Source: an uncultured virus (IMG/VR IMGVR_UViG_3300037846_000120) (Duplodnaviria; Heunggongvirae; Uroviricota; Caudoviricetes). Taken from it: a stretch of DNA of 64,000 nucleotides. How positions within the stretch are numbered: position 1 is the first letter of the stretch; each line of letters opens with the position of its first letter. The stretch lies in IMG/VR virus record IMGVR_UViG_3300037846_000120. The stretch is one strand, 5' to 3'. Positions 6,482-62,906 of this stretch are shown here, in pieces. The notes under the pieces were generated by a model. That model was not told where the DNA came from, made no database searches, and worked only from the letters and a program-made list of their open reading frames with translations. The position numbers were made by a program, and so were the translations under genes.

Positions 6482-6752
6482 CGAAATGTTCCTGCCCATC
6501 CTCGTCTGGCTCGACTCGCGCTGTTGCATTGCTGCCGGCTCCATAGTGGTCGTCAAGCCATTGCCTGACGGCTGGATAGAAACGCCCACGCAACAACGCA
6601 TAAAACTTGGGGAAATCTGGCGACTTCTCCCATTCCTTGAGCACCGCGGCCCACCGATCCTCGCCAAGGTGCGCCGCCACGCGGCGGTGCAGCTCCTTGT
6701 CGTCGCAGAACAACGACGGCTCAGCCAGCGCGTGATCGGAGGGTTTGGTCAT
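6342..6752 (-). CDS. putative excisionase / small DNA-binding protein overlapping int
   Basis: position directly upstream of int; DFPK...GRFYPAVRQWLD pattern; ATGA coupling to upstream gene. Confidence 0.6.
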   Translation of the reverse strand: MTKPSDHALAEPSLFCDDKELHRRVAAHLGEDRWAAVLKEWEKSPDFPKFYALLRGRFYPAVRQWLDDHYGAGSNATARVEPDEDGQEHFDAPPKKPARVQARAAPAPVLDGQSDTRPEGTSRLPRTLRPIAGGRN

Positions 6753-7102: not shown

Positions 7103-7614
7103 GCCGCGCTGGCCTCCGCCTTCTTCGGCTTACCCGCCCTAACCCACGCAATCACGTCTTCCCGATTGTCGCGCGCCCAATTCAACGTCTCCAAGGCGTT
7201 CCCCATGATCTCAAGCGCCATATCGGCTTCCGACTGGCGTTTGAAATGATCGTTCGGGAAGCCCATGCGGCCATAGACTTTCTTGCGCATGGCGATCTCG
7301 CGCTCGACTTCGGCAATCTGAGCGTCGATTGAGTATTTTTTTGGCGGCGGATTTTCTTTCGCTTCGAGTTCAGCCACAGCCGCCTCCAATGTCTTCTCGC
7401 CGTTGAGCACCGCGAGCACTGCATCGAGATCGGACACCCGCGTATCGTCGATGAACCACTCGGTGTATGTGACGCCCTTGCACGCGCCCTTGGCAAAGCG
7501 GAGCCGAGCCACGCCTTCGACATCGCCGAGCCAAGCCGAATGCGACCGCGTGAAATTGATGTGCGTCGCGTTCACCATCTTGCGGCCTTGGATGTCGGCG
7601 CGGGTGAGGGGCAT
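7099..7614 (-). CDS. hypothetical phage protein
   Basis: QIAEVEREIAMRKKVY motif typical of small phage early proteins; coupled in operon. Confidence 0.7.
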   Translation of the reverse strand: MPLTRADIQGRKMVNATHINFTRSHSAWLGDVEGVARLRFAKGACKGVTYTEWFIDDTRVSDLDAVLAVLNGEKTLEAAVAELEAKENPPPKKYSIDAQIAEVEREIAMRKKVYGRMGFPNDHFKRQSEADMALEIMGNALETLNWARDNREDVIAWVRAGKPKKAEASAA

Positions 7615-7616
7615 GG

Positions 7617-7832
7617 TTACGCCGGACGTTTGCCGCGAGGGTCGCGGCATATTTCGATGGTGGCTCCGATTTGGCTAAGGCACTCGCCCAAATCGATGTG
7701 CGCCAAACCAAACCGATCCGCCAATTCTTGATCTCCAGCGGCCTCGATTTCTTCCGAAACAGCCAGGACTTTACGCTGGGCGGCCTCAAGGCGGCGCCTC
7801 CAACTGCGCAGTTTTGATCCTGCCAGCGTCAT
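7617..7832 (-). CDS. hypothetical protein
   Basis: tight operon spacing, helical composition. Confidence 0.55.
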   Translation of the reverse strand: MTLAGSKLRSWRRRLEAAQRKVLAVSEEIEAAGDQELADRFGLAHIDLGECLSQIGATIEICRDPRGKRPA

Positions 7833-26311: not shown

Positions 26312-26334
26312 CACACCACTGGAGACCAACGACA

Positions 26335-33048: not shown

Positions 33049-34242
33049 ATGACCACGAGTAGCGACGTTCAGGCCAATCCGGGCGATCAACAGACGCAAC
33101 CCGATCCGAACCAACCGGCCGCTGGTGCGCAACAGCAGCAGCAACCGGAACCGCAGGATACCGGGCCGCAGTTTGTCGATCCCGACGATACGGCGCTCGC
33201 CGAAGCCCAAGCCGCAGTAGAAGCCGAGGAGGCAGCGGCCGGGGATCAGCAGACGACGCAATCCGAACCCGGACAGCCAAACGCTCAAACGCAACCATCC
33301 GGTCAGCAACCGCAGGATCAGCAACGGCCGCAAGGCGGGCAGCAACAGCAGCCTGCCGAACCGCCGACGATGATCCCGATTGCGCGACTGAATGAGGAGT
33401 TGAGCAAGCGGCATACGGCCGAACTCGACGCCGCCCGGTGGCGCGGCATTGCGGAAGCACGGCAACAGCAGCAACCCCAGCCGCAAGGCGGGCAGCAACA
33501 ACAGCCGCAGCAAACGCAACAGCCGACCGCCGATCAGCGTCTTGCCGGGATCAAAGCCGACAGACTTGCGCTCGCCCAAAAGTTCGACAACGGCGAGATC
33601 ACGTATGCCGAGTTGACCGCGCAACAAGACGTGCTCGCCGACAAAGAGCAGGTGGTCCGCGAGGAACTCCTGCTCGCGAAGGTGAAGCCGGCGGCGCCAG
33701 CCAAAGAGCCGAGCGACCTCTATCTGGAGGATCGCACCAACGCGATCGCTGCGGAACATCCGTGGGTCGACGTGTTCGAGCAAGTGGGCACCGACATCGA
33801 CTGGAAATACGTCCGCGATCGAGCGCAGGGCAATCTCATCGACAAAGGCATCGACGTGACGACGCAGGCCGGAAAGCTTGCACTCCGCGAGGAGGCCGCC
33901 GCGCTGATGGATGAGCTTGGCCCACACATGCTCGGTGCGAAAGCCACGGCAAAAGGCATCGCTATTCCAGGTCAACAGCAACCGAAGCCCGGCCAGCAGC
34001 AACAGCCGCCGGCAGAGGCGGGCACTCGTCAACAGCAACCTCCGCTCTCTCCGATCGCAGCTATCCGCAAGGGCAAGCTCGGCGTCGAGGCCGGTCAGCC
34101 GCCAGATCTCGCGCGGATGAACGGCACCACCGGCGATGCGAGCCAGATCACGGATGCGGCGATCGAGAGCATGGGCGAGGACGCTTACGACAAAATGTCC
34201 GACGCGCAACGAGCAAAACTCCTCGGCATCAGCGAACTGTAA
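33049..34242 (+). CDS. capsid scaffolding protein
   Basis: Q/P-rich, MIPIARLNE coiled coil, ends YDKMSDAQRAKLLG; directly before the MCP. Confidence 0.8.
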   Translation: MTTSSDVQANPGDQQTQPDPNQPAAGAQQQQQPEPQDTGPQFVDPDDTALAEAQAAVEAEEAAAGDQQTTQSEPGQPNAQTQPSGQQPQDQQRPQGGQQQQPAEPPTMIPIARLNEELSKRHTAELDAARWRGIAEARQQQQPQPQGGQQQQPQQTQQPTADQRLAGIKADRLALAQKFDNGEITYAELTAQQDVLADKEQVVREELLLAKVKPAAPAKEPSDLYLEDRTNAIAAEHPWVDVFEQVGTDIDWKYVRDRAQGNLIDKGIDVTTQAGKLALREEAAALMDELGPHMLGAKATAKGIAIPGQQQPKPGQQQQPPAEAGTRQQQPPLSPIAAIRKGKLGVEAGQPPDLARMNGTTGDASQITDAAIESMGEDAYDKMSDAQRAKLLGISEL

Positions 34243-34252
34243 AGGTGCCACC

Positions 34253-35377
34253 GTGACAGTTACCGATTTCGGCGCATTGAGCGCCGCGAGAAAAATCGTT
34301 TGGGCGGCCGAGCTTTGGAAAAACGGCCGCGACCAATCGTTCTTCTTTGCCAATGGCTTCATTGGCAAGAACGACAACGACATGAACTCCGTCATCCAGC
34401 GGGTGACGAAGCTCACCGAGACCGAGCGCGGCTACGAGTGCGTGATGCAGCTCGTGCTCGACATGCAGGGCGATGGCGTGGTCGGCGACAACGAGCTGGA
34501 AGGCAACGAAGAGGCCTTGCAGAACGACAGCCAGACCATCCGCATCGACCAGTTGCGTCACGGCAACAAGTCGAAAGGCGAGATGTCCGAGCAGGCGACC
34601 GTCATCCGGTTCCGGATGCAGTCCAAGGACAAGCTCACCTTCTGGCTCGCCGACAAGCTCGACGAGCTGATGTTCCTGACCATTTCGGGCCGCGCCTTCA
34701 CGCTCACCTATAACGGTGCGACCCGGACCAACAGCCAGTTGCCGGAACTGACGTTCGCCGCCGACGTGGTGGCGCCGTCCTCGAACCGCGTCATGTACGC
34801 GGGGTCGGCAACCAGCGAGGCCACGCTCACCACGTCCAACACCATGAATTGGGCGACTGTGGTGACTGCTGGTGCTGCAGCGGAAACGCGCCGCTTGCGC
34901 CCGATCCGCGACGGTGGCCGCAACAGCTATATCCTGCTGATGCACACCCGGCAGGCGCGCGATCTGAAACTCGACCCGACCTATCAAACCATCGTGCGGT
35001 CGGCCGAGAAGCGCTCGAGCAAAAACCCGCTGTTCACCGGCGCCATGTCGCAAATCGACAACATGGTGATCCATCACCACAACAAGGTGTTCAACACCTC
35101 CGGTATGGCGTCGGGCTCGAAGTGGGGCGCGGGCGGTACCGTCGACGGCGCACAAGCGATGCTGCTCGGCGCGCAAGCCGGCGCGATCGCCACCATCGGC
35201 TCCATGTTCTGGCGCGAGGCGGTGCTCACCGACTACGGCAACCGGCCCGGTATCGGCGTCGGTCGCAAGATCGGGATGCTCAAGCCACAGTTCCAGTCGA
35301 TCTACGATTTGGTGTCGAACGCACCGAGCCGCCAGGACTTCGGCTGCATCGCGGTCAAGACCGCCGCCGCGCAGTAA
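34253..35377 (+). CDS. major capsid protein, N4-gp56/DUF4043 type
   Basis: TDFG, GDGVVGDNELEGNEEAL, IRIDQLRH, NPLFTG, DYGN..GI, DFG.I. Confidence 0.9.
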   Translation: MTVTDFGALSAARKIVWAAELWKNGRDQSFFFANGFIGKNDNDMNSVIQRVTKLTETERGYECVMQLVLDMQGDGVVGDNELEGNEEALQNDSQTIRIDQLRHGNKSKGEMSEQATVIRFRMQSKDKLTFWLADKLDELMFLTISGRAFTLTYNGATRTNSQLPELTFAADVVAPSSNRVMYAGSATSEATLTTSNTMNWATVVTAGAAAETRRLRPIRDGGRNSYILLMHTRQARDLKLDPTYQTIVRSAEKRSSKNPLFTGAMSQIDNMVIHHHNKVFNTSGMASGSKWGAGGTVDGAQAMLLGAQAGAIATIGSMFWREAVLTDYGNRPGIGVGRKIGMLKPQFQSIYDLVSNAPSRQDFGCIAVKTAAAQ

Positions 35378-49860: not shown

Positions 49861-52737
49861 ATGGCTTCGCCCACTGCCAATCCGTTCGATCAATTCGACG
49901 GACCGGCTCCCACCAAACAAGACAATCCGTTCGATCAATTCGACTTTGGATCGTACCCCTCGGTGATCGCGCGCGGCGTTGCGCGCGGCGCAATCGATAC
50001 GACCGCGACTGCGCTCAAGGGTTTGCCGGTCATCGAGCGCGCGTCCGAGCCAGGCAACCTCAGTTACCTTGAAGGCTCGGGCGGCGGTACGATGTTCGCG
50101 CCACCGGAAAATCCGCAGCCGCAAACTCCGATCACCGAGACGGCGCCGTACAAAGCCGGTCAAGCGGTGCGGCAATTTGGCGAACGCCGTGCTCCGATGA
50201 CGGCGGCCGAGGAGCAAAGCTTCACCGGCAAAGCAAGTCGCATGGCGGGCGGTGCAGTTCCCTTCGTTGCTGGCGCGCTGCTCGCGCCTGAAGTTGCGCT
50301 GCCGGCAGGCGCCACTGTCTTTGCATCGTCATCGGCGGCTTCATCGTTCGACGATTTCAAAACGCGCGGCGCCAGCGATGAAGACGCGGCGAAGGGCGCC
50401 GGCCTTTCCGCGATCGTCGGCGGCGGTCTCGGTGTGCTGCCGCTCGGCGCGATCCTGGCGCCGGTGCGCCGCACGGCGCCTGGCATGGTCGGCTGGGCGC
50501 TGACAAAACTTGAGCAGGCGCTGCAATCGGGCGCGACGTTTGGCACGGTCGGCGAAGCGCAGAAGTTTCTTGATGAGGAAATCAAGCGACACTCTGCCAG
50601 CGATTATGTTGGCGCTCCGGTTGATGCCTTCGGGTCAACGACGCCGCAAGGCGTCGAGGCGGCAACGCCGGCCGGCTACACATTCGATCCTAAGAGCTAC
50701 GCCGCAAGCATCGCTGCCGGCGGCGCGCTCGGTGTGGTGCATCCGCTCGCAGCTCCGCGCGTCAGCACGCCGGAAGAAATCGCAGCGTTCAACCGCGCCG
50801 CATCGGCTGCACCTGGTGCGGAGAAAACATTCAGCCAGACGCGCGCCGACATCGACGAGTTTTTGCGAACGCGCGCCGAGCGCGAAGCCGCAGCAGCGCG
50901 CGACGCCGGACAACTGCAGCTGCCGCCGCCGGCCGAGCCCGGCGAATCGGCGCCGCAAGCGGCAGCACCACAACCCGAAGCGCCATCAGGCGGTGAAACA
51001 TTCCCGTCGTTCGAGGAGCCGGGACGCACGTCGCCGGCGGCGGCGCCAAATCCATTCGATCAGTTCGAGCAGCCGACTGTGGAGATCCCGAGCGCTGCGC
51101 CGGCCGAGCCGCAACCGCCGGCGCCCCGCACCGACGTCGGGCCGCACGTCCTCCAAGCTCTGCTCGATGACCCGCGGTCGGCGGCTGAAATCCGCGGCTC
51201 GATCGACGCGAGGAAGGCGGCCGGTGATCAGGGGTCAACCCCCATCCAAACGGAGGTCAACCCCCAACCGCTGGCCCAAGCCCTTGACCAGACTCCAGAT
51301 ATTAACCACGTTTCACGTGAAACCCCGGGTAGCAGGGACCTTCCAGTGGCGCTGGAAGGCCCGGAGCACGTCCTGGCGGGCGCCGAGCACACCGCCGAGC
51401 CCACGCCCGGCCAAGCCGACGCGGGCAACTACCGCAAGCGCCATGTCACCTGGAATGGCCTCGATCTTACCGTCGAGACCGAGGCCGGCATGGAGCGCCG
51501 CGGCACCGGAGCGGACGGCCAGCCCTGGTCGGTTACGCTCACTTCACCATACGGCTACATCAAAGGGACAAAAGGCCGCGATGGTGAACAAGTTGACGTT
51601 TATCTAGGCCCGCAACCGCAATCCCCCCACGTCTTCATCGTCGATCAGATCGACCCGGCCACCGGCCGGTTCGACGAGCACAAGGCGCTGGTCGGCTTTC
51701 CCGACGAAGCGAGCGCTCGAGCTGCGTACCAACAGGCCTTTTCCGACAACAGCGCCGGAAGCCGTCTAGGCGCCCTGCAGAGCCTCACCGTTGAGGGGTT
51801 CAAGGACTGGCTGCGGAAAGGTCAGCGCCGAGAGCCCCTCGCTTACAGCGACACTGTAGGGGCGGCGCAGCGCATTGCGCGCGAGATCGGGGTGAACGCG
51901 ACCGCGGCCGAGGTCGAGGAAGCGGCGCGCATCCACAAGGGCAGCAATGCTGACCTAACCGATGTCCTGGTCGCAGTGATCGAGCGAAACGCCATTGCCG
52001 AAGAAGCGGAATCGGCGGACAGTGTCCAACGTCACGAGGCGAACGATGGTCGGCAGGTTGAGCCCGCAGCAGAGAATACTTCTGGCGCACAGCTTGCGCC
52101 GGCAGGCGAACCAACCGGGCGTCCCGGTGCGCAGGAAGTTGGAGAAGCGCCGGCTGGCATCGAACCTGGTGAAGCTGAACGCGATCGACGCGCAGCGGGC
52201 GAACGCCTAGACCAGCGCAGCGGTTTTTCTCCCAGCCAATTGAAGACGCTGCTCGACGAGGAGGATGAAAGCCTCGTCGGCATGTGGCATCAGGCCCGCG
52301 AGCCGATGCCGCCCGACGCATCGGATCAGCACAGCGCCTATGTCAGCCGGATCACAAAGGACCTTGATCGGCTCGGCGTGTTGCACGCCGCAACCGAACA
52401 GGAAGTTCGCGATCTCTTGATGGACCGCCGGCTCCGCAAGGAGACGGTGCAGCCGCGTGGCAGTGAAATTCTCGATCTGCAAGCCGAGCCGGAGCGTCCT
52501 GCGCTCACAGCGCCCGTCACGCGTGATGCGGCGCCGGCCGAGCCTGAGATCACGCCGTTGGGCACAACGGCGGCGACGCTGACCAAGCTCATCCCGAAAA
52601 TCGCAAAAATGTCGGACGCCGATCGCGCCGACGTGCGCCAGCGCGTCGCGACGATGATGGCCGACATGGAAGCGGAAGGCCGCAAGATCGCGGAGCACTG
52701 CGTAGAGACCGGCGGAAAATTCTCCGTCCGAAGATAG
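49861..52737 (+). CDS. large ejection/polyvalent protein with inorganic pyrophosphatase-like domain
   Basis: NPFDQF repeats, hydrophobic G/A helices; AGNYRK...YGYIKGT.G.DG..VDV..G...FDEHK...GF. Confidence 0.8.
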   Translation: MASPTANPFDQFDGPAPTKQDNPFDQFDFGSYPSVIARGVARGAIDTTATALKGLPVIERASEPGNLSYLEGSGGGTMFAPPENPQPQTPITETAPYKAGQAVRQFGERRAPMTAAEEQSFTGKASRMAGGAVPFVAGALLAPEVALPAGATVFASSSAASSFDDFKTRGASDEDAAKGAGLSAIVGGGLGVLPLGAILAPVRRTAPGMVGWALTKLEQALQSGATFGTVGEAQKFLDEEIKRHSASDYVGAPVDAFGSTTPQGVEAATPAGYTFDPKSYAASIAAGGALGVVHPLAAPRVSTPEEIAAFNRAASAAPGAEKTFSQTRADIDEFLRTRAEREAAAARDAGQLQLPPPAEPGESAPQAAAPQPEAPSGGETFPSFEEPGRTSPAAAPNPFDQFEQPTVEIPSAAPAEPQPPAPRTDVGPHVLQALLDDPRSAAEIRGSIDARKAAGDQGSTPIQTEVNPQPLAQALDQTPDINHVSRETPGSRDLPVALEGPEHVLAGAEHTAEPTPGQADAGNYRKRHVTWNGLDLTVETEAGMERRGTGADGQPWSVTLTSPYGYIKGTKGRDGEQVDVYLGPQPQSPHVFIVDQIDPATGRFDEHKALVGFPDEASARAAYQQAFSDNSAGSRLGALQSLTVEGFKDWLRKGQRREPLAYSDTVGAAQRIAREIGVNATAAEVEEAARIHKGSNADLTDVLVAVIERNAIAEEAESADSVQRHEANDGRQVEPAAENTSGAQLAPAGEPTGRPGAQEVGEAPAGIEPGEAERDRRAAGERLDQRSGFSPSQLKTLLDEEDESLVGMWHQAREPMPPDASDQHSAYVSRITKDLDRLGVLHAATEQEVRDLLMDRRLRKETVQPRGSEILDLQAEPERPALTAPVTRDAAPAEPEITPLGTTAATLTKLIPKIAKMSDADRADVRQRVATMMADMEAEGRKIAEHCVETGGKFSVRR
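51309..51324. promoter_or_regulatory. parS-like site
   Basis: cGTTTCACGTGAAACc; perfect 14-bp core of consensus TGTTTCACGTGAAACA. Confidence 0.6.
52046..52210 (+). CDS. putative nested +1-frame gene (54 aa, basic helical)
   Basis: GAGG RBS; MVGRLSPQQRILLAHSLRRQ...RRLASNLVKLNAIDAQRANA; main frame reads like a shadow frame here. Confidence 0.45.
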   Translation: MVGRLSPQQRILLAHSLRRQANQPGVPVRRKLEKRRLASNLVKLNAIDAQRANA

Positions 52738-52756: not shown

Positions 52757-53227
52757 ATGGAGCTGGGAATGGTTCGACGATCACGATTGTCGAGGCTGGA
52801 TAGCGTTGCCCGATGGACTGGCGATCGCCAACGAAGGCCGCACCGCGACAAGCACGATTTCGGCTACGAGCTGGGCGAGCGCATGTTCGTCCGCGGCATG
52901 GTGCTGCACGGCAAGGCGGAAGCGGTGAACTGGCGAAGATTTCTCCTCGACGCCACCAAGGCGCTCGGCATGTCGCCAGTCGCGCGCACCGCATCCTGGA
53001 AGTTTCCCCTCCACGGCGCCGGCGGCAACGGCCGCACCATCATCCAGCCAATCACAGAATCCTTCCTCGTCATCGATACGTGGCCCGATCACCGCGGCGC
53101 GTATCTCCTCATCTGTAGCTGCAAACCCTTCGAGCCGAAGTGCTTGGAGCCGGTGCTCACGCTCTATTCGCTCCGCCTGGGGCAATCGATCGGTGAGCCC
53201 GCCATGCTGGAGCTTGTCGAGCAATGA
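52757..53227 (+). CDS. divergent pyruvoyl-dependent SAM decarboxylase (SpeD/SpeH) family protein; start uncertain
   Basis: G.T..QPITES-FLVIDTWPD..GAYLLICSCKPF. Confidence 0.8.
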   Translation: MELGMVRRSRLSRLDSVARWTGDRQRRPHRDKHDFGYELGERMFVRGMVLHGKAEAVNWRRFLLDATKALGMSPVARTASWKFPLHGAGGNGRTIIQPITESFLVIDTWPDHRGAYLLICSCKPFEPKCLEPVLTLYSLRLGQSIGEPAMLELVEQ

Positions 53228-54480
53228 CCGATTACAAGAGCAAGACCGTTTGCGTTTGGGACAACGGCCTGTTCATCGAGTGCGCAATCACGTTGGCGCG
53301 CGATTTCGGCAAGGTGCTCTATTACGTGCCGTGGCAGTCCGGCTATCCGTCATCGAACATCACGATCATCGGGCGCGGCGTGCCCAATCTCAAACAGATC
53401 GAAAATCCCTGGCCGTTCATCGACGAGATCGACCTGTGGGTGTTTCCCGACGTCTACGAGGGCGCGACCCAGGAATTCCTGGCGTCGCTTGGCAAACGGG
53501 TATGGGGCGGCCGGCGCGGTGAGGATTTGGAACTGGATCGCGCCGGCAGCAAAGAGTACCTCGCATCGCTCGGCATCGACATCGGCAAGTGGTACCTCGT
53601 CAACGGTGTCAAGGCGCTGCGCAAGCATCTTGAGCGCCACGACGATCAGTGGGTGAAGATTTCCAAGACCCGCGGCGACGGCGAGACCTTCCACTCCGAA
53701 AACTACGACCTGGTGAAGCCGCGAATCGACGAGCTTGAATACAAGCTCGGCGCCAAGGGCGACATCATGGAGTTCATCGTCGAGGACGCCATCAACGATG
53801 CGGTGGAGGTCGGCTACGACGGCTACACCATCGACGGCAAGTACGCCAAAAACGCCATGTTCGGCATCGAGATCAAAGATAAGGGTCTGGTGATGAAGAC
53901 CCTGAAATACGACGCCTTGCCGATCGAAGTAAGCAGCGTCAACGACAAGCTCTCGCAGGCGTTCCGCGAATTCGGCTACCGCGGCATGTTCTCCTCCGAA
54001 CTCCGCATCACGCGCGACCACACGCCCTACATGATCGACCCGTGCTGCCGCTGCGGCTCGCCGCCATCGGAGTTGATGTGGGAAATGGTCAGCAATTGGG
54101 CCGACATCATGTGGGAGGGAGCGCTCGGCACGGTGGTCGAGCCGGTGTTCACCGCGAAATGGGGCGCCGAGCTGCTCTTGATTTCGGATTGGGGCGACAG
54201 GAACTGGCAACCGCTCGAATTCCCGAAGTCGATCCGGCGCAACGTCAAACTGCGCTACCTCACCATCATCGACGGCAAGTACTATCAGGTGCCGCAGGCT
54301 TCCGCGCATCCGGAGATCGGCGCCGTGGTCGCCACCGGCGACACCATGGAAGCGGCGATCAAGAACGTGACGGAGATCGCCGAGAAGGTGAAGGGCTTTT
54401 ATGTCGATGTGCACCCGGAGGCGCTCAACGAGGCGACGGAGCAATTCGACAAGCTCAAAGAGTTTGGGATCAAGGTTTAG
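53224..54480 (+). CDS. PurD-like ATP-grasp ligase
   Basis: LELDRAGSKEYL...GI, WVKI, FIVED, YRGM, IDPCCRCGSPP (cf. PurD EFNxRFGDPE); ATGA-coupled to the decarboxylase. Confidence 0.8.
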   Translation: MTDYKSKTVCVWDNGLFIECAITLARDFGKVLYYVPWQSGYPSSNITIIGRGVPNLKQIENPWPFIDEIDLWVFPDVYEGATQEFLASLGKRVWGGRRGEDLELDRAGSKEYLASLGIDIGKWYLVNGVKALRKHLERHDDQWVKISKTRGDGETFHSENYDLVKPRIDELEYKLGAKGDIMEFIVEDAINDAVEVGYDGYTIDGKYAKNAMFGIEIKDKGLVMKTLKYDALPIEVSSVNDKLSQAFREFGYRGMFSSELRITRDHTPYMIDPCCRCGSPPSELMWEMVSNWADIMWEGALGTVVEPVFTAKWGAELLLISDWGDRNWQPLEFPKSIRRNVKLRYLTIIDGKYYQVPQASAHPEIGAVVATGDTMEAAIKNVTEIAEKVKGFYVDVHPEALNEATEQFDKLKEFGIKV

Positions 54481-54682
54481 CAAAAAATTCCTCTGCCTTT
54501 ATGCCTGTGACGCGCATAATTTCCTGCTCCGCCTCCCGCCAAATTATGTACGCGACCGTCATATCTTGAACGGCCAGATCACAACCAAAAAACACGACGC
54601 CTTCGTTCGTCGGCAGTGCCGATGCTGGCCCGGCGACAAGCGCCGCGCCCAGGCCCAACAGGAAATCCCTTCTATCAACCAT
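54470..54682 (-). CDS. small antisense protein with Tat-like signal
   Basis: MVDRRDFLLGLGAALVAGPASA. Confidence 0.5.
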   Translation of the reverse strand: MVDRRDFLLGLGAALVAGPASALPTNEGVVFFGCDLAVQDMTVAYIIWREAEQEIMRVTGIKAEEFFAKP

Positions 54683-57600
54683 GATCCGCTGCCCCAACTT
54701 CCGCTCCGATAAGGTCCGCGAGGACTTCAACGGCGTTTTGCAACGCCTCGGCGGCGTAGCTATGTCCGCAGACGACATTGCGCCGCGGCAACCTTATCTC
54801 GCCAAGCTCAACGAAACGCAAATCGCAGCGTATCACACCGCCCATTACCTGTGGAACGCGCACAAGAAGGTGGGAGACATCCTCGACTTTCTGGATGCGC
54901 TCGACGCGGTGAACAATGCGCTGGAAGCGCCGGTCAATGCACCGGAGCAGCCATCTGATGCAACAAAGCCGCCCGATCACGCAACAGAGCGGCCCAAAAA
55001 TGCGCCGATAGCGCCTAAAGATGCACAGGCCCCGGAAACGGGGCCTTCTTCGTCTGAGGCGGCGCCGCTGTCCAATCTGCCGTCGATCGAGCTTGCGCGC
55101 TCGCTGCTTGAGCGGTTGCGCGCTGGCAAGCCGATCACCAGCAAAATCCTCCAGGAAGAAGCCGGCTTGTCCTATGGCGGCAAGCTCTCGGAAGGCCGCT
55201 TCGACCGCAAGGACATGGCGGATGCGCTCGAACTCGCGGTGAACATGCACATCGCGCAGGATCCCGCGCTGCGCGTCACGGGCGACGACTGGCGAGGCCC
55301 GATCGCCAAGCTCGACGCGCTGTTGTCGAAGCTTCCCACTCAGCGCGTGCGCTCCGATGAACAGGTCAGCTTTCAGCAATTCTCGACGCCGCCCACCTAC
55401 GCCGCCGCCGCGACCTATGCCGCCAATCTCCGCGAAGGAGACACATTAATTGAACCTTCGGCGGGAACCGGCTCGATCGTCGCGGCGGCGATGCGGCCGG
55501 GCGTCAAGATCATCGCCAATGAATTGTCCGAGCGCCGCACGGCGCTGTTGCGCGCGCTGATCGGCTCTGACGGCAAAGTGTTCCGCGAGAATGCCGAGCA
55601 GCTCAACAACGTGCTGCCCGACGACGTCAAGCCGAACGTCGCGGTGATGAATCCGCCATTCTCGCAAACCGCCGGCCGCATGGGCGACCGCAAGGTGCCG
55701 ATGGTGGCGCCCATGCACATCGAGCAAGCGCTCAAGCGGCTCGAAGATGGCGGGCGCCTCGTCGCCATTGTCGGCCGCGGCATGACCATGGGCCAGCCGG
55801 GCTACCGGGCCTGGTGGTCGAAAATCTCCGCCGAATACACCGTGCGCGCCAATATCGGCGTCGACGGCAAGGTGTACGAGAAATACGGCACCACTTTCGG
55901 CACTCGTTTACTCGTCATAGATAAGATTGCGCCATCGGGTGATTCGAAGCCCGTTTTGGCAGATGCGCAGACGGTCGAAGACCTGATGCGCTTGTTGGAG
56001 CCGATCAGAAATGGGCGCTCAGCGGACAATCAAGGAGAACAGCGCGTCGGTGAACCTGGCGGCGCGCAGGTGGATCATGCTCGCTCTGAAGCAGATGCCG
56101 GACCCGCACTACTTGCACCTCCTCCAACTGGCGGAGTGGGGACTGACGAACAAGGCGCAGGGCGACTGGCCTCCGAACGATCAGTACGCGCTGGAAGATC
56201 AGATACGGCATCTGTTCGGGTGGAGCGCGGCCAACGTGATGAGTTGGCTTTTCAGCAATCCGAACGGCCCGGACAAGCCGGAGCAACAGGCGAGCCTGCT
56301 AAAGCTGCTGCGGGAGACGGACAAGCCGGAGCGCGCCGCGGCGCACGTGCTCAACGCGATCTACAGCCGTCAGGTGAGCCAAAATCCGGCCTTGCAGCCG
56401 GCGGCGAGCGAGTAGAGCTCGAACACGCCGCGCCCGGCACCCAGGGCGCTTCCGAGATATCCGACAGCCTCTACGACAATTACAAGCCGCAGCGCGTGCG
56501 CGTGGCCGGCGCCAAGCCGCATCCGTCGAAACTGGTGGAATCGGCCGCGATGGCTTCGGTGTCGCCGCCGACGCCGACTTACAAGCCCAACCTGCCGCGC
56601 GCGGTTATAGAGAAAGGTCTGCTGTCGGACGCGCAGCTCGAGGCGGTGGTCTATGCCGGCGAAGCCCACGGCAAGATGCTGCCGGCGGCCGAAGGCGAGA
56701 CGGCGAAGCGCAAGGGCTATTTCATCGGCGACGGCACCGGCGTCGGCAAGGGCCGCGAGATCAGCGGTATTTTCCTCGACAACTGGAACCAAGGCCGCCG
56801 CCGCGGCGTGTGGGTGTCCGAGAAAAACACCCTGCTCGAAGATGCCAAGCGTGATTGGTCCGGGCTGCAACAAAACCCGAACCTCATCTTTAATATCGGC
56901 AAGGTGAAGACCGGCGAGCCGATCCAGACCAAGCAAGGCATCGGCTTTGTCACCTACGACACTCTCAAGGGCGGCATGTCGGATCAGGCCGCGCTCTCGC
57001 GCGGCGAATTTGTGCGCAAGCAGCAAGTCAAGGTGAACGGCCAGAGCGGCAAGGTCGCAAAATTCGGCAAGACGTCCGGCGGTCAGCCAGGGCAGATCAC
57101 CGTCAATCTCGACAACGGCTCTACCGTTACCGTGCCGAGCAACGAGGTCCAGGCGCTCGAAAAGGCCAACATCAAGTCGCGCGTCGATCAGATTGTCGAT
57201 TGGCTGGGTGAAGATTTCGACGGCGTTATTGCGCTCGACGAATCCCACAACATGGCCAACGCGACCGGCGGCAAGGGCGACCGCGGCAAAAAAGACGCGG
57301 CGATGAAGGCGATCGCCGGCATGGAATTGCAGAAGCGCTTGCCCAATGCGCGCGTCGTCTACGATTCGGCGACCGGCGCCACCGAAGTCTCCAATCTCGC
57401 CTATGCCGATCGGCTCGGCTTGTGGGGTAGGGGTACTCCATTCGCTTCACGAGAAGCCTTCGTGACCCAGGTCGAGGAGGGCGGCATTGCGGCGATGGAG
57501 TTGATCGCCCGCGACATGAAGGCGCTCGGCCTCTATACCGCGCGCAACTTGTCCTACGACGGCGTTGAGTACGATCGGCTTGAGCACAAGCTCGACGAAA

Positions 57601-60600
57601 ATCAGCGTGAGATTTACGACACCCTGGCCGAAGCGTGGCAGCATGTGCTGCGCAACATCAACGCGGCGCTGAAAAGCACCAAAGCCGAGAAAGACGGCCG
57701 CGCCAAGGGCGCAGCCTATTCGGCATTTTGGGGCGCGCATCAGCGCTTCTTCAATCAGATCGTCACGGCGATGCAGATGCCGACCGTCATCAAGGCGGTC
57801 GAGAAAGACATCGAAGCCGGCCGGCAAGCGGTGCTGCAACTCACCAACACCAACGAGGCATCACAGGAGCGCGCCGCCGCCAAGGCTCAGTCGGCTGAGG
57901 AAATCGAAGATTTGGACATCACGCCGCGCGACCAGATCATCCAGCTTGTCGAGCATTCGTTCCCGACCCAAGCCTATGAAGAATATATCGACGACAAAGG
58001 CAAAAAGCGCGCCCGACCGGTGCTAAATTCAAAGCGCGAGCCGGTACAAGATCGCGGCGCCGTTGCAGCGCGCGCGCGCCTGATCGAAGAACTTGCCTCG
58101 ATCCGGGTGCCGCAAGGCCCGCTCGAAATGATCCTCGATCACTTCGGCATCGATACCGTCGCCGAAGTGACCGGCCGCGGCCGGCGCTTTGTGCGCAAGC
58201 CCGACGAGAAGACCGGCGAAATGCGCCGCGTCGAGGAAAGCCGGCCGGGCTCGTCCAACATCGCCGAAACCGACAATTTCCAGGCCGGCAAGAAAAAGGT
58301 GCTGGTGTTCTCCGAAGCCGGCGGCACCGGGCGCTCGTATCACGCCGACAATACTGCGCCGTCGAAAGACGCGCGGCGCGCACATTACGTGGTGCAGGGC
58401 GGCTGGCGGGCCGACAAGGCGGTGCAGGGCCTTGGCCGCACGCACCGCTCCAATCAGGCGAGCGCGCCACTGGTGCGGCTGCCGACCACGGACCTGCCGG
58501 GACAAAAGCGCTTCATTTCCTCGATCGCGCGGCGCCTGGGGCAACTCGGCGCGCTGACCAAAGGCGAGCGCAAGGCCGGCGACCAGGGCATCTTCAACGC
58601 CCGCGACAATCTGGAAAGCATCGAAGCAACGACTGCGCTCACGCAGTTTTTCAAAGACGTGGTGAATGGCGCGGTGCCGGACATCACCGTCAATGACTTC
58701 GAAGAACAGACCGGCCTCAGTCTGCGACTGACGGACGACGACGGCCGGGTCATGGGCATGGCGACCGACTTCCCGCCCATCACGCAATTCCTCAACCGGC
58801 TGCTGTCGCTTAAGATCGACATGCAGAACCGCGTCTTTGACGCATTCTCCGAGCGGCTCGACGCCGTGATCGAAGCGCGCCGCGAGGCCGGCTTGCTCGA
58901 CGTCGGCATGGAAACCGTCCGCGCCGACAAGATCACCAAGGCAAGCGAGCAGACCGTGCACACGGTCGAAGGCTCCGGCGCCGAGACGAAATACGTCAAG
59001 CTCCAGGTCTCAAAAAAGTTTGTGCCCACCGAATTCGATAAGGTCGCCTCGAACGAATGGCGGCCGGTCGAAGCCTGGCTCGAAAGCCCAAACGGCAAGG
59101 TGTACGCCGCAGCGAAGGCGCCGAGCCTGACGGATAGCAGCGGCAAGATCATCGATAATTTCCGCCTCGTCAGTCCGGTGTCCGATTCGCGCACCGTGCC
59201 GAAACTCAACATCGAGAAGCCCGACAGCAAGTGGAAAAAGATCGAGCGCAGCGAGGCGTCGGCGCTCTGGCGCAAGGAGATCGCTGCGGCGCCGGAGTTC
59301 ATCACGCGTGACATGCACCTGATCACCGGCGCAATTCTGCCGATTTGGGACCGGCTCAAAGGCAATCCGCGCGTGGTGCGGCTGCAAACCGACAATGGCG
59401 AGCGGCTGATCGGGCGTGTGGTGCCCAACGAAGCCATTGCCGCCACGCTCAAGGCGCTCGGCGCCGAAGCGCAATTCAGCCGCGTCACGCCGCCAGAACT
59501 ATTCCATAAGATCGCCGCCGGCGGTCGCGCCACACTGGCGAATGGCTGGACCTTGAGCCGGCGCCTCGTCGCCGGCGAGCAGCGCATCGAGCTCAATCCC
59601 CGCGGTGTCTCATTCAGCGAGGCCCGGGAGCTTAAGCGCGACGGTGTTTTCAGCGAGATCATCGATTACAAGATGCGCTACTTCGTGCCGATGGAGGCGC
59701 GGCGCGGCGCCCTTGTCCTCGGCAAGCTGACCGAGTACCGGCCGATCGCCGACATCCAGGAAGCGGGAGCGGCGCCGGACGACATGGCCGCCGGCGACGA
59801 GCCGATGTTCTCGATCCGCGGGACCGCGGCCAAAGACGGCCGCGAGGGTGCCGTCAAAGCCGAAAGCGACCAACTGGCGGAAGCGGTCGCGCGTCGCATC
59901 TTCCCGGAGCTGCGCATCGAACTCGACAAGCTCGGGCTGGAAGACGTCGACCTCAATCTGCCGGGCAAGCTCACGGCGCGCACCGGCGGCAAGACCTATC
60001 TGCTCAACGGGCATTATCTGGATCGAACCATCACGGTCGCGCTCGATGCCGACAACATCCGGCAGACCATGCACCATGAGGTGTTGCACGCGCTCCGCGA
60101 TCTCGGGCTGTTCAAGGACGGCGAGTGGGGCATTCTCTCGACCAAGGCGCGGCAGGCCTGGCGCAAGCAGTATCCGATCGACCGGCTCTACAGTCACCTG
60201 GACGACGAAGGCAAAGACGAGGAAGGCGTCGCCCACGCCTACGCCGATTGGGCCGCCGGAAAAGCAACGGTCGATGGCCGTATTGCGCGGCTGTTCAAGC
60301 GCATCAAGGCTTTCTTCGAGGCGCTGCGCAACGCGCTGCATGGCCTTGGCTTCAAGACCGCCGAGGATGTGTTCAAAGACATCCGCTCCGGCGAAGTCGG
60401 CCGGCGCGATCGTGCCGGCGTTGGCGGCGAGCCGATGTTCTCCGTGCGCGACGACGCGGCGCCGGCGGCGCTGAAGGACAACCCCAAGCTCAGCGCCCGC
60501 ATCCGCGAGCGCATCGAAGCCGCGCTCGACAGCAAGTTCGCGCACAAATTCATCGAAGGCACGCAAGACCTGTCGCACCCGGTCAAGCTGTTGCAGCGCG

Positions 60601-62906
60601 ACCTTGAGGAGCGCCGCTCCGGCGCTTTCGCGGATCCCGAGGACTTCTATACCAGGAAGCGCCTTTATCCCGGTCGCGTCGGAGCCTGGACCGATACGTT
60701 CAACCGCAAACACCTTGATCCGATAGTCAACCTCCTCAAATCGAATGGCATCAGCCTGCAGGAAGCCAGCGACTACCTCTATGCGTTGCACGCGGCCGAG
60801 CGCAACGCTGCCATCGACAAGATCAATCCGGGGCTCGGTGGCGAAGGCTCGGGCATGTCGAACGATGAGGCCGAGAAAATCCTGGCCGAAGCCAAGCGCG
60901 CGGGGAATGCCGCGGCGTTCGACGAGCTGCGCCAGCGCGTCGACGGCATCCGCAATCTGATCCTCGACGTGATGGAGAAAAGCGGCCTGGAAAAGCCCGA
61001 AGTCATCGCCGAGTGGAAAAAGCGCTACCAAGAATACGTGCCGCTGCGCGGCTGGGAGGTCGAGCCCGACGACGCGCCGGGCGAATTCCGCGGCGCCGGC
61101 GCCGGCTTCAACATCCGCGGCAAAGAGGTCAAGCAGGCGTTCGGCCGGCGCTCGAAAGCCGATAACCCGCTCGTCAACCTGTTCGACCAGGCGTACCGCA
61201 CCTTCGACCGCGCCGAGCGCAACCGCTATCTGCAATCGCTGTTCCGCGCGATCGACGATCTCGGCGAGGACGCCGACGACATCGCCACGCTCGATAAGGG
61301 CAAGCCGCGGCGCGAGATCAATCCGCGCACCGGCCTGGTGCGCACCGTTGAAACCTCAAGCCAGTACGGCAACCCCAAGGCGGTCAATCTCAAATTCGAC
61401 GGCAATCCGCACTTCATCGTGTTCCGCGATCAGCAGCTCGCCGAAGCGGTCAAGCGGATGGGCGCCGGATCGCTCGGCATCTTGCAGCCGGTGCTCATCC
61501 TACAAAACAAGATGAAGGCGATGTGGACGCACTACTCGCCGGACTTCCTGTTTCGCCACTTCATGTTCCGCTACCCGATCGAGGGCGCGCTCAACTCCTT
61601 CGAGCAGAAGGAGGGCGGCGCCCACAAGGTCTCACAATACGTCCGCGAGGCGTTTCCGTTCATGGGCACGGCGAGCAAGGCGATCTTCGCGTCCAATCGC
61701 GGCGAGATCAGCAGCGACCCCGAAATCGCCCGGATGCAGAAGGAGTGGGACATGATGCGCCGCGGCGGTGGCGCCATGATGTTCCGCAACATGCGCGACA
61801 CCGACCTGACGCGTGAGCACCTGGAAACTCGGCTCAAAGACCTGTCCGACAGCCCGTTGCAGAACGCGCGCGCCAAGTGGCGGCACGGCGTCGAGGCGAT
61901 GGATGTTGTCACCAACGCGCTCGACAATGCGCTGCGGCTCGCCGCATTTTCTTCTGCTCTGAGGCAGGGAAAGACCGTACAGCAGGCGAACTTCATCGCC
62001 CGCGAGGCCACCATCGACTTCCAGCTCAAGGGCCTGTGGTCGAACCTCATGGGCATCCTGTTCCCGTTCGCCAATCCGGCGGTGCAGACCGCAGCGCGGA
62101 TGACAAAAGCGGTGTCGCGCTCGAAGATCATGCGCCGTGTGTTCATGGGGACGATGCTGGCGGGTTTCCTGACATCGGCATACAACTATCTCATCGGCGG
62201 CGACGACAAGGACGGCACCCCGTTCTTCGACAAAATCCCGGAGTGGGATCGCCGCCTCAACTTCATCATCCTCAGTCCGATCAAGGATGCGAAGGGCCGG
62301 CCCGAGCCGATCAAAATTCCGATGCCGTACAATTGGGCGTTCCCGCTGATGCTGGGCTACGCCTTCGGCGGTTTCATGTTCGGCAAGGAAGGCCCGCGCA
62401 AGCTGATGAGTATGGTGCTGCACTCGGCGCTGGAAACCTTCACCCCGCTCGGCTCCGAAGGCAATCTCGCCGCCGAGTTCACGCCGTCGACGCTGCGCCC
62501 CGTTACCTACATCTACACCAATCTCGATTGGGCCGGCCGGCCGGTGCACGCCGATCCGACATTCCAGAAACACCCGAACTCCTATTCAGGGCGCCGGACC
62601 ACGGGAGAAGGCTGGAAGGACCTGGCCGCGGGCGTCAACACTGCAACCGGCGGCAGCCCGGCAAAGTCAGGTGTGATCGACATCTACCCGGAAGATTACC
62701 GGGAAATGATGGATCAGTTCGTCGGCACACAGCTCCGGCTCGGGCAGAACGTGTGGGATACGGTGTCGGCGCCGATCAAGGGCGAGTGGCCCGATCCGGG
62801 CAAAGTCCCGCTCGGCCGCGTCGTCTTTGGCACCGATTACGATGCCGCCGATCGCGCCCGCGGCTATGAGCTGCGCGACAAGCTCAAGCATCCGTGGAAA
62901 CGCTGA
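54681..62906 (+). CDS. giant DarB-like polyvalent protein: N6-adenine MTase, Strawberry-notch SF2 helicase, zincin HExxH, LPD38-like C-terminus (true start possibly 54762)
   Basis: IEPSAGTG and VMNPPFS; YFIGDGTGVGKGR, DESH, QGLGRTHRSNQ; HHEVLH; C-terminal FPF.N...Q and IP.PY motifs. Confidence 0.88.
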   Translation: MIRCPNFRSDKVREDFNGVLQRLGGVAMSADDIAPRQPYLAKLNETQIAAYHTAHYLWNAHKKVGDILDFLDALDAVNNALEAPVNAPEQPSDATKPPDHATERPKNAPIAPKDAQAPETGPSSSEAAPLSNLPSIELARSLLERLRAGKPITSKILQEEAGLSYGGKLSEGRFDRKDMADALELAVNMHIAQDPALRVTGDDWRGPIAKLDALLSKLPTQRVRSDEQVSFQQFSTPPTYAAAATYAANLREGDTLIEPSAGTGSIVAAAMRPGVKIIANELSERRTALLRALIGSDGKVFRENAEQLNNVLPDDVKPNVAVMNPPFSQTAGRMGDRKVPMVAPMHIEQALKRLEDGGRLVAIVGRGMTMGQPGYRAWWSKISAEYTVRANIGVDGKVYEKYGTTFGTRLLVIDKIAPSGDSKPVLADAQTVEDLMRLLEPIRNGRSADNQGEQRVGEPGGAQVDHARSEADAGPALLAPPPTGGVGTDEQGAGRLASERSVRAGRSDTASVRVERGQRDELAFQQSERPGQAGATGEPAKAAAGDGQAGARRGARAQRDLQPSGEPKSGLAAGGERVELEHAAPGTQGASEISDSLYDNYKPQRVRVAGAKPHPSKLVESAAMASVSPPTPTYKPNLPRAVIEKGLLSDAQLEAVVYAGEAHGKMLPAAEGETAKRKGYFIGDGTGVGKGREISGIFLDNWNQGRRRGVWVSEKNTLLEDAKRDWSGLQQNPNLIFNIGKVKTGEPIQTKQGIGFVTYDTLKGGMSDQAALSRGEFVRKQQVKVNGQSGKVAKFGKTSGGQPGQITVNLDNGSTVTVPSNEVQALEKANIKSRVDQIVDWLGEDFDGVIALDESHNMANATGGKGDRGKKDAAMKAIAGMELQKRLPNARVVYDSATGATEVSNLAYADRLGLWGRGTPFASREAFVTQVEEGGIAAMELIARDMKALGLYTARNLSYDGVEYDRLEHKLDENQREIYDTLAEAWQHVLRNINAALKSTKAEKDGRAKGAAYSAFWGAHQRFFNQIVTAMQMPTVIKAVEKDIEAGRQAVLQLTNTNEASQERAAAKAQSAEEIEDLDITPRDQIIQLVEHSFPTQAYEEYIDDKGKKRARPVLNSKREPVQDRGAVAARARLIEELASIRVPQGPLEMILDHFGIDTVAEVTGRGRRFVRKPDEKTGEMRRVEESRPGSSNIAETDNFQAGKKKVLVFSEAGGTGRSYHADNTAPSKDARRAHYVVQGGWRADKAVQGLGRTHRSNQASAPLVRLPTTDLPGQKRFISSIARRLGQLGALTKGERKAGDQGIFNARDNLESIEATTALTQFFKDVVNGAVPDITVNDFEEQTGLSLRLTDDDGRVMGMATDFPPITQFLNRLLSLKIDMQNRVFDAFSERLDAVIEARREAGLLDVGMETVRADKITKASEQTVHTVEGSGAETKYVKLQVSKKFVPTEFDKVASNEWRPVEAWLESPNGKVYAAAKAPSLTDSSGKIIDNFRLVSPVSDSRTVPKLNIEKPDSKWKKIERSEASALWRKEIAAAPEFITRDMHLITGAILPIWDRLKGNPRVVRLQTDNGERLIGRVVPNEAIAATLKALGAEAQFSRVTPPELFHKIAAGGRATLANGWTLSRRLVAGEQRIELNPRGVSFSEARELKRDGVFSEIIDYKMRYFVPMEARRGALVLGKLTEYRPIADIQEAGAAPDDMAAGDEPMFSIRGTAAKDGREGAVKAESDQLAEAVARRIFPELRIELDKLGLEDVDLNLPGKLTARTGGKTYLLNGHYLDRTITVALDADNIRQTMHHEVLHALRDLGLFKDGEWGILSTKARQAWRKQYPIDRLYSHLDDEGKDEEGVAHAYADWAAGKATVDGRIARLFKRIKAFFEALRNALHGLGFKTAEDVFKDIRSGEVGRRDRAGVGGEPMFSVRDDAAPAALKDNPKLSARIRERIEAALDSKFAHKFIEGTQDLSHPVKLLQRDLEERRSGAFADPEDFYTRKRLYPGRVGAWTDTFNRKHLDPIVNLLKSNGISLQEASDYLYALHAAERNAAIDKINPGLGGEGSGMSNDEAEKILAEAKRAGNAAAFDELRQRVDGIRNLILDVMEKSGLEKPEVIAEWKKRYQEYVPLRGWEVEPDDAPGEFRGAGAGFNIRGKEVKQAFGRRSKADNPLVNLFDQAYRTFDRAERNRYLQSLFRAIDDLGEDADDIATLDKGKPRREINPRTGLVRTVETSSQYGNPKAVNLKFDGNPHFIVFRDQQLAEAVKRMGAGSLGILQPVLILQNKMKAMWTHYSPDFLFRHFMFRYPIEGALNSFEQKEGGAHKVSQYVREAFPFMGTASKAIFASNRGEISSDPEIARMQKEWDMMRRGGGAMMFRNMRDTDLTREHLETRLKDLSDSPLQNARAKWRHGVEAMDVVTNALDNALRLAAFSSALRQGKTVQQANFIAREATIDFQLKGLWSNLMGILFPFANPAVQTAARMTKAVSRSKIMRRVFMGTMLAGFLTSAYNYLIGGDDKDGTPFFDKIPEWDRRLNFIILSPIKDAKGRPEPIKIPMPYNWAFPLMLGYAFGGFMFGKEGPRKLMSMVLHSALETFTPLGSEGNLAAEFTPSTLRPVTYIYTNLDWAGRPVHADPTFQKHPNSYSGRRTTGEGWKDLAAGVNTATGGSPAKSGVIDIYPEDYREMMDQFVGTQLRLGQNVWDTVSAPIKGEWPDPGKVPLGRVVFGTDYDAADRARGYELRDKLKHPWKR
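56011..56415 (+). CDS. putative nested +1-frame gene (134 aa) inside the giant ORF linker
   Basis: globular W/L/Y-containing sequence with GC3-rich codons while the main frame is R/G/A/Q shadow-like. Confidence 0.6.
   Translation: MGAQRTIKENSASVNLAARRWIMLALKQMPDPHYLHLLQLAEWGLTNKAQGDWPPNDQYALEDQIRHLFGWSAANVMSWLFSNPNGPDKPEQQASLLKLLRETDKPERAAAHVLNAIYSRQVSQNPALQPAASE

Follow-up and report, generated by a model that had tools for sequence, protein, structure and literature searches.

Introduction

Pathways that pair a decarboxylase with an ATP-dependent amide ligase are well known, as in PanD/PanC, which lead from β-alanine to pantothenate and in which PanD is pyruvoyl-dependent, and in MfnA/MfnD, which lead from tyramine to γ-glutamyltyramine and in which MfnD is an ATP-grasp enzyme. 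A ligase of the glutathionylspermidine synthetase (GspS) family reportedly sits with membrane proteins in bacterial operons. The available text of one report states that genes for S-adenosylmethionine decarboxylase (AdoMetDC, SpeD) in bacteria are linked to ATP-grasp ligases resembling GspS (PMC11237479, citing Li et al. 2019 Biochem J). Experiments have shown that some phage homologues of SpeD turned into pyruvoyl arginine or ornithine decarboxylases, according to the available parts of two papers (Li et al., PNAS 2023, PMC9992855; JBC 2023, PMC10407285), and neither the text nor one supplement of PMC9992855 mentions ATP-grasp or a ligase. Here we analyzed a gene pair encoding a SpeD-fold protein and a PurD-like ATP-grasp ligase, located at positions 52,757 to 54,480 of a 64,000-nucleotide stretch from an uncultured tailed virus (IMG/VR IMGVR_UViG_3300037846_000120). 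This whole stretch is called the window, and all window coordinates are positions within it.

In the window, the pair is embedded between two large polyvalent proteins. Polyvalent proteins of the DarB kind are argued to be packaged and injected in the available parts of Iyer et al. 2017 (PMC5512222), where ATP-grasp is mentioned only for RNA ligases; the available parts of other polyvalent-protein and jumbo-phage papers likewise have ATP-grasp only as RNA ligases or R2K enzymes. No paper describing the decarboxylase-ligase pair was found in the literature library that we searched.

Results

Linkage of the two genes across phages

The pair and its main features are as follows.

52757..53227, + strand: SpeD-fold (class 1b AdoMetDC-like) pyruvoyl-proenzyme-type decarboxylase gene, 156 amino acids (aa) as called (open reading frame (ORF), PF02675, fold)
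52759..52762, + strand: Shine-Dalgarno-like GGAG, 6 nt 5' of the in-frame ATG at 52769 (read from sequence)
52769..52870, + strand: basic N-terminal tail, about 35 residues long and predicted to be disordered, containing an R-rich stretch and a D-K-H motif (low model confidence)
53057..53062, + strand: Glu101-Ser102, predicted self-cleavage and pyruvoyl-forming site (aligned to the ES of AdoMetDC 2iii)
53075..53077, + strand: Asp107 at S+5, where AdoMetDC has the processing His (alignment to 2iii)
53120..53122, + strand: Cys122 at S+20, the catalytic-Cys position (aligned to the Cys of 2iii)
53224..53227, + strand: ATGA overlap of the decarboxylase stop TGA with the ligase start ATG, suited to translational coupling (read from sequence)
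53224..54480, + strand: PurD-like ATP-grasp ligase gene, 418 aa, of an unnamed, mainly viral family (ORF, AlphaFold (AF2) model, fold search)
54037..54072, + strand: active-site motif D272-P-C-C-R276-C-G-S-P-P-S-E283, aligned by hidden Markov model (HMM) to the PurD motif E-x-N-x-R-x-G-D-P-E (1vkz, 5vev, 3mjf)

The coordinates and sequence confirm what an initial annotation of this DNA had noted, namely that both ORFs are real, overlap at ATGA and lie between a 958-aa and a 2,741-aa protein. Their linkage extends far beyond the window. A ligase profile recovered 87 loci, 80 viral and 7 genomic (Bradyrhizobium, Xanthobacteraceae and others), and a same-strand SpeD-fold ORF was present at 58/87, nearly always just upstream; 4 of the other 29 loci have no upstream DNA. 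When duplicates and fragments were removed, 84 distinct ligases were obtained, of which 58 have a SpeD-fold partner (51 of the window variant and 7 of the canonical ESGIQIHT type), 1 has a pyruvoyl-dependent arginine decarboxylase (PvlArgDC), 21 have none and 4 lie at a locus edge. A second sample (78 loci), broader and more divergent but with some contigs shared with the first, contained SpeD at 32 loci, a small protein with an H-E-x-x-E motif (the HExxE protein) at 29, both at 9 and neither at 25. In the reciprocal test, all viral loci recovered with the decarboxylase profile (27/27) carry the ligase downstream. The reciprocal result and the ligases that stand alone together place the ligase at the centre of the module, with the variant SpeD as a dedicated accessory. 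The co-occurrence elsewhere that the initial annotation had wished to see surveyed is thus borne out, and, as judged from sequence, the pair is a conserved functional cassette. Overall, we conclude that phages do carry this conserved two-enzyme cassette, which combines known folds and was previously undescribed.

Most relatives have the pair between the terminase and a P22-type portal, and most share with the window only the pair; their other flanking families are absent from the window. The small basic proteins, the Wzy-like protein and the HExxE protein that flank the pair in relatives have no homologue in the window. The window context with InPase and DarB-like neighbours is common only to loci L001/L083, L002 and part of L003. 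In an unrelated lineage (L099), the ligase, accompanied by the HExxE protein instead of a decarboxylase, lies between polyvalent proteins of the ParB and ADP-ribosyltransferase (ART) types, and at 12 further loci it directly follows a protein of more than 1,100 aa. The earlier description of the pair as inserted among ejection-protein genes therefore holds for the window lineage, L001/L083, L002 and L099, but most relatives carry it between terminase and portal. In low-GC phages, SpeD, the HExxE protein and the ligase occur in varying order. The module may directly follow a gene for a large protein, for example one that has a GGDEF diguanylate-cyclase domain (L085:2132-6001) or one that is interrupted by a LAGLIDADG intein (L100:1-3213).

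The decarboxylase-like protein

The GGAG spacing, together with homologues P0122, P0123 and P0125 that begin at the equivalent Met (close homologues start MVRR or MVRQ), makes 52769 the more likely true start, giving 152 aa. The protein passed the Pfam family AdoMet_dc PF02675 (31.9 bits against a cut-off of 25, residues 59-128) and failed the AdoMetDC equivalog TIGR03330 (13.3 bits against 75.65). In its AlphaFold model, the core has a predicted local distance difference test score (pLDDT) above 90, and residues 1-35 are at about 52. The top five Foldseek matches in the PDB were all class 1b AdoMetDC (2iii, 1vr7, 1tlu, 1tmi), with E values of 4e-6 to 3e-4 and target TM-scores (TMt) of 0.60-0.61; the predicted model thus has the alpha-beta sandwich fold of the solved class 1b enzymes.

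The HMM alignment to Aquifex AdoMetDC 2iii places the window sequence ESFLxxDTWPDH (ESFLVIDTWPDH) on ESHISIHTWPEH. Here the S+1 His is replaced by Phe and the S+5 His by Asp, and Asp111 occupies the position of the Glu in the AdoMetDC HTWPE motif. The initial annotation had read the same changes, with Glu-Ser and the Cys kept and both His lost in ESFLVIDTWPD, and the alignment agrees. We take the S+5 His of ESHxxxHTWPE to be the residue needed for AdoMetDC self-processing. Across 40 ligase-linked homologues, which fall into three sequence lineages that are otherwise about 15-30% identical, only P84, G92, S102 and C122 are invariant (40/40). At S-1, 37 homologues have E, 2 have D and 1 has T (E/D in 39/40); at S+5, 33 have D, 6 have H and 1 has E; and His112, near Asp107, is present in 24/40. 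On this alignment, the predicted pyruvoyl Ser and catalytic Cys are under the strictest selection and the processing His is replaced. The basic N-tail bears a D[KR]H motif in 11/40 partners, among them members of the canonical-type SpeD lineage.

In searches of phage collections, the decarboxylase matched only phrog_3125 among PHROGs (E 0.0028), and PADLOC gave 0 families for it and for the ligase. Neither tblastn of the decarboxylase against 50,697 GenBank phage records nor blastn of the pair region against GenBank phages gave a match. A predicted complex of the ligase and residues 36-156 of the decarboxylase, its core, scored 0.00, which speaks neither for nor against binding.

The PurD-like ligase and its family

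The AlphaFold model of the ligase (pLDDT 92, predicted TM-score (pTM) 0.91) was compared with 48,161 chains by VIA-align, which is independent of Foldseek. PurD 2yw2 ranked first (Z 31.7, root-mean-square deviation 3.4, 381 residues aligned), followed by the families of PurT (Z 26.1) and PurK (Z 25.3); PylC was also among the neighbours (Z 21.5), and RimK, glutathione synthetase and TTL-type enzymes were at Z 12-16 (glutathione synthetase Z 14.0). At Z>=8, 62 chains were found, and all top rows were ATP-grasp enzymes. Foldseek gave at least 500 matches at E<=1e-3, including PurD 1vkz (E 3e-19), and identity to PurD is 13-16%. The model appears to contain the full N/A(B)/C PurD-like fold, a three-domain ATP-grasp with lid. 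K145, E259, D272 and R276, as well as G278, are invariant in 26/26 aligned ligases; the first four fall on PurD ATP, Mg and catalytic positions, with D272 and R276 on the PurD E and R.

By sequence, the ligase had no family in Pfam, with no match to GARS_N, GARS_A or GARS_C at E<=1, and no match in PHROGs. It failed the PurD equivalog TIGR00877 (12 bits against 288) and gave a weak match to the PurD C-domain HMM, and no close match was found among BFVD viral structures (best query TM-score (TMq) 0.48). The ligase is thus, on its predicted structure, an ATP-grasp enzyme nearest PurD in fold and is not PurD by sequence, in line with the PurD-like assignment made earlier.

The family is large and almost entirely viral. 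Cluster representatives at 50% identity numbered 1,460 at E<=1e-3, 1,236 at 1e-10 and 908 at 1e-30; other counts were 861 word-index matches and 281 IMG/VR stretches, and the ESM Atlas cluster of the ligase has 1,438 members, 96% of them viral. Identity was 53-87% within the best 120 matches. Among cultured phages in GenBank (tblastn), only two Aquificae viruses carry a relative, at about 26% identity, near the portal and without a SpeD gene.

Inteins and fusions were observed among the best 150 ligase representatives. Ligases of about 760-800 aa contain LAGLIDADG/Hint inteins (P0134, P0157, P0158, P0159, P0172, P0202, P0232, P0253, P0268) at three conserved motifs, near residues 151, 219-226 and 275, and the intein at about 275 splits the D-P-C active-site motif with the Cys as the +1 residue. 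In five others, a small capless phosphatase of the HAD type is fused to the N-terminus (recognised by Pfam in P0163 and by the DFDGT motif in P0175; the others are P0162, P0216 and P0218), and P0174 has an N-terminal fusion to an acylphosphatase (PF00708, 6e-14). These fusions hint that the pathway handles a phospho- or acyl-phosphate compound. A locus search with P0175 found only stand-alone HAD genes with no ligase nearby, and one with P0174 gave no match.

A swapped partner and optional neighbours

In L039/L059, a phage of the Mu-portal type, a PvlArgDC (PF01862, 5.3e-45) lies directly after the ligase at 7230-7796, and there is no SpeD gene. A quick tree placed the L039/L059 ligase as sister to that of L050 (SH-like approximate likelihood ratio test (SH-aLRT) 97), whose partner is SpeD-fold. 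Since two unrelated pyruvoyl decarboxylases occupy one slot, the slot requires that chemistry, and by analogy the swap hints that the decarboxylase substrate may be arginine. Downstream of the PvlArgDC are an endonuclease VII and then a 749-aa protein with an ADP-ribosyltransferase domain.

The HExxE protein (about 135 aa) is an optional third member found on either side of the ligase, at 17/84 and 29/78 loci (for example, L069:5601-6005, L098:2524-2928, L100:3275-3652 and L101:5215-5619). It belongs to no family found in our searches, and the ESM Atlas gave weak SprT/M78-like leads. Small basic proteins flanking the pair share a C-terminal motif, approximately K-R-G-(L/M)-I-S-(E/D)-K-A-M-x-K-H-x-G (L019:4161-4475, L064:928-1293, L022:2708-3028), and two families with a motif of this type were counted at 48/87 and 40/87 loci. 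The shared motif may be a docking peptide. In relatives without a decarboxylase, neighbours of the ligase include an Acb3-like CBASS inhibitor (L061:5012-5764), an Acb2/Tad1-hairpin protein (L087:5039-5578) and GNAT acetyltransferases (L037:3896-4459 and L101:5573-6118), and with these neighbours the terminase-portal gap looks like a hot spot for counter-defence cargo.

The prophage and the flanking genes

The following genes frame the pair in the window.

5138-6667, minus strand: integrase-like gene, 509 aa
24692-26311: terminase
29608-31605: P22-type portal
34136-35377: capsid gene
49861..52737, + strand: upstream flank, 958-aa InPase-domain protein of polyvalent-protein type (PF18823 InPase 2.3e-48, residues 517-651; phrog_10089 'DarB-like antirestriction' 3e-34)
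54681..62906, + strand: downstream flank, 2,741-aa DarB-like polyvalent protein, methyltransferase (MTase)-like with Sno-type helicase and LPD38 (AAA_34 8.6e-115; Helicase_C_4 9.3e-83; LPD38 1.3e-26)

The window comes from a soil metagenome contig and has a high GC content (61-67% per 2-kb bin). Its left end (1-4400) carries host-type genes, namely a radical-SAM lysine-aminomutase (KamA)-like gene, a methyltransferase, a glyoxalase, Sir2 and a cold-shock protein, and this host DNA together with the integrase indicates an integrated prophage. The prophage, of the P22-portal type, occupies the rest of the window beyond the integrase and also contains endolysin and head-closure genes. A long ORF in a different frame (25675-27636) overlaps the terminase ORF; since the last 100 residues of this long ORF match a scaffolding-protein PHROG, its true start must lie well downstream.

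The 2,741-aa protein further matched phrog_6263 (DNA methyltransferase) and PADLOC mad2 (6.6e-13). From the InPase, MTase/Sno-helicase and LPD38 domains, and by analogy with known polyvalent proteins, both flanking proteins are likely to be packaged and injected, which makes the earlier assignment a reasonable one. No promoter-like or terminator-like site was found on the + strand between the pair and its flanks. Among the 53 window ORFs scanned with Pfam, a scan that is not exhaustive, there was no spermidine synthase, other polyamine gene or pur gene, in agreement with the initial annotation.

Discussion

Of the roles proposed earlier for this pair, an amine that is made and then ligated is the best-supported logic. 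We favour, at chances that we put somewhat short of even, a pathway in which an amine made by the decarboxylase, perhaps agmatine, is coupled by the ligase to a carboxylate through an acyl-phosphate. The pair would form one stand-alone accessory unit of a temperate podophage and share the transcription of its late (virion) genes. First, the SpeD-fold protein would cleave itself at Glu101-Ser102 to form the pyruvoyl group and would then decarboxylate a free alpha-amino acid and not S-adenosylmethionine; the most likely substrate is arginine, which would give agmatine, or another basic amino acid related to it. Second, the PurD-like enzyme would activate a carboxylate as an acyl-phosphate and condense it with the amine, and the product would be an amide, an N-acyl-agmatine-type conjugate. 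The ligase would be the core of this system, and the decarboxylase and the HExxE protein would be accessories that feed or finish its reaction.

This proposal is supported by the retained decarboxylase chemistry (PF02675, the fold, and S102 and C122 in every homologue), by the retained ligase chemistry (the fold, K145, E259, D272 and R276, and inteins at the most conserved motifs) and by the linkage of the genes, which includes the ATGA overlap, the counts in both samples and the reciprocal test, and the lack of a separating promoter- or terminator-like site. The fold swap with PvlArgDC and the precedent of phage SpeD derivatives point the same way. Several observations weigh against it. The self-processing His is Asp here, as in 33/40 partners, and self-cleavage is only predicted; likewise, the Mg-binding Asn of the ATP-grasp E-x-N is replaced (Cys274 here; close relatives have C or M, and distant members T or A). 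A decarboxylase was not detected beside the ligase in 21/84 distinct rows, nor at 45/78 loci of the wider sample (the 25 with neither partner minus the PvlArgDC contig L135, plus 20 with the HExxE protein only and 1 at an edge), so that the amine may be host-derived or not needed. The PvlArgDC swap is known from one phage type (two contigs), and membership of that family is no proof of arginine specificity. Finally, the HAD and acylphosphatase fusions suggest phosphorylated or acyl-phosphate chemistry outside the proposed model.

The main rival is the reverse order of steps, as in CoaB/CoaC, a ligate-then-decarboxylate pathway. Here the ATP-grasp enzyme would act first, ligating an amino acid through its side chain or a carboxylate onto an Arg/Orn/Lys-like side-chain amine, and the pyruvoyl enzyme would then strip the alpha-carboxylate. 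The exclusive occurrence of the variant SpeD with the ligase (27/27) fits a substrate that is the product of the ligase rather than a common metabolite, the ligase is able to stand alone, and PylC, which acylates the lysine side chain, is among its structural neighbours (Z 21.5). However, PvlArgDC and, in the available text of PMC9992855, the known phage SpeD derivatives use free amino acids, and the decarboxylase usually comes first in gene order, which is weak evidence. We therefore consider the reverse order unlikely, though it is the alternative that fares best.

A role in polyamine metabolism, in which the decarboxylase lifts host agmatine, putrescine or decarboxylated S-adenosylmethionine for replication or packaging and the ligase conjugates or sequesters the polyamine like glutathionylspermidine synthetase, appears improbable. 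Phage SpeD homologues with arginine or ornithine decarboxylase activity are common auxiliary genes (PMC9992855, available text), the known linkage of bacterial AdoMetDC genes to GspS-like ligases (PMC11237479 citing Li et al. 2019, available text) offers a parallel, the adjacency to packaging genes fits a need for counter-ions, and GNAT acetyltransferases lie near the ligase in L037 and L101. In contrast, the ligase is PurD-like and not GspS-like (glutathione synthetase Z 14.0 against PurD Z 31.7), no other polyamine gene was among the scanned window ORFs, and a decarboxylase that boosts a pool would be expected alone, yet 27/27 are linked to the ligase.

We also give a low probability to a non-catalytic SpeD-fold protein that acts as a regulatory, scaffolding or substrate-presenting partner, like the catalytically dead AdoMetDC 'prozyme' of trypanosomes, of which 6bm7 is among the fold matches. 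The loss of the processing His in 34/40 homologues (D 33, E 1) would agree with such a role, as would the basic disordered N-tail and the dispensability of the partner at many loci. However, S102 and C122 are invariant in 40/40 across lineages about 15-30% identical, and the swap with another pyruvoyl decarboxylase fold argues that chemistry, not shape, is selected.

The initial annotation had also offered a SAM sink against type I restriction-modification or BREX. Such a sink would decarboxylate S-adenosylmethionine early in infection and so starve type I/III restriction-modification or BREX, and this proposal did not hold up well. It draws on the AdoMetDC fold, on Asp111 at the HTWPE Glu position, on flanks of the DarB-like anti-restriction type and on the basic N-tail, which could serve packaging. 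The TIGR03330 score falls far short (13.3 against 75.65), both His are replaced, the partner is swapped for an arginine decarboxylase fold, the ligase, linked in 27/27, has no role in a SAM sink, and the usual place of the pair in relatives is the terminase-portal gap and not the neighbourhood of injected proteins; we regard it as very improbable. That the ligase is a divergent phage PurD boosting purine synthesis has next to no chance, in spite of PurD as its best structural match and the weak PurD C-domain HMM match, given the TIGR00877 score (12 against 288), no GARS Pfam match at E<=1, identity of 13-16%, no other pur gene among the scanned window ORFs, and decarboxylases and the HExxE protein as partners.

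With regard to the function of an amine-ligation pathway, the position by portal, terminase, polyvalent proteins and anti-defence genes suggests a product for virion assembly or early counter-defence and not for bulk metabolism. The PurD-like structural neighbours and the fusion to HAD favour a small phosphorylated acceptor. A target that is macromolecular or belongs to counter-defence is kept alive by the capless HAD, the position among packaged proteins, and the Acb2/Tad1-like, Acb3, GNAT and ART neighbours. It is conceivable, though we think it unlikely, that the cassette performs a new phage covalent modification, in which an agmatine-like amine would be amide-linked to acidic groups of packaged or injected virion proteins, or to a molecule that resembles a phosphorylated nucleotide, for example an immune signal of the host. 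If so, this covalent-modification module would be a widespread counter-defence or virion-maturation device that has been overlooked since no cultured GenBank phage carries it. DNA hypermodification was set aside: the phage is temperate, and no hydroxymethylase, kinase, DpdA or 7-deazaguanine gene was among the scanned window ORFs.

To summarize, what is new here is the setting of the pair among polyvalent proteins, the exchange of SpeD for PvlArgDC, and the inteins and fusions of the ligase. The ligase family is among the larger uncharacterised enzyme families of tailed phages. It is under strong constraint, with 53-87% identity within the best 120 matches and inteins at active-site motifs, and it sits in the most conserved part of the phage genome, yet it is without a name, a PHROG or a close cultured-phage relative. 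A dedicated, fold-replaceable pyruvoyl decarboxylase provides a testable handle on the chemistry of the ligase (amine, carboxylate and ATP). Identification of the product would bring to light a metabolite or modification new to phage biology and extend the work on SpeD neofunctionalisation.

Comparison with known systems

Compared with the described SpeD/AdoMetDC offshoots, as far as the available text of those reports describes them, the window protein shares the fold, the Glu-Ser site and the catalytic Cys, and is likewise small, phage-borne and without a spermidine synthase partner; it differs in having Asp for the processing His and Phe for the S+1 His and in its constant linkage to a ligase (27/27). 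PvlArgDC (PF01862), a self-processing pyruvoyl enzyme, fills the decarboxylase slot beside the same ligase in L039/L059, but its fold is unrelated to SpeD and it is not in the window, and it serves here only to infer the role of the SpeD-fold partner. PurD (TIGR00877; 2yw2, 1vkz) is the best match to the ligase over all domains, with the catalytic Arg, the acidic Mg ligands and the ATP Lys kept; in contrast, the window ligase lacks the Mg-binding Asn, scores far below the equivalog and has other genomic partners, so that its substrate is not expected to be phosphoribosylamine plus glycine.

At the level of gene pairs, the AdoMetDC-GspS clusters also join a SpeD gene to an ATP-grasp amide ligase, whereas here the ligase fold is PurD-like and the genes stand in phage late operons. 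Phage polyvalent proteins enclose the pair in the window, L001/L083 and L002, but the pair consists of stand-alone enzymes and not of polyvalent-protein domains. The initial annotation knew of no characterised example of the pairing. This is true of the pair itself in the literature searched, but the logic of a decarboxylase followed by an ATP-dependent amide ligase is known elsewhere. PanD/PanC and MfnA/MfnD have no homology to the phage pair and belong to cellular cofactor pathways, not to phage virion modules, but they share with our proposed pathway the two-step logic in which an amino acid is converted to an amine that is then ligated to a carboxylate at the expense of ATP.

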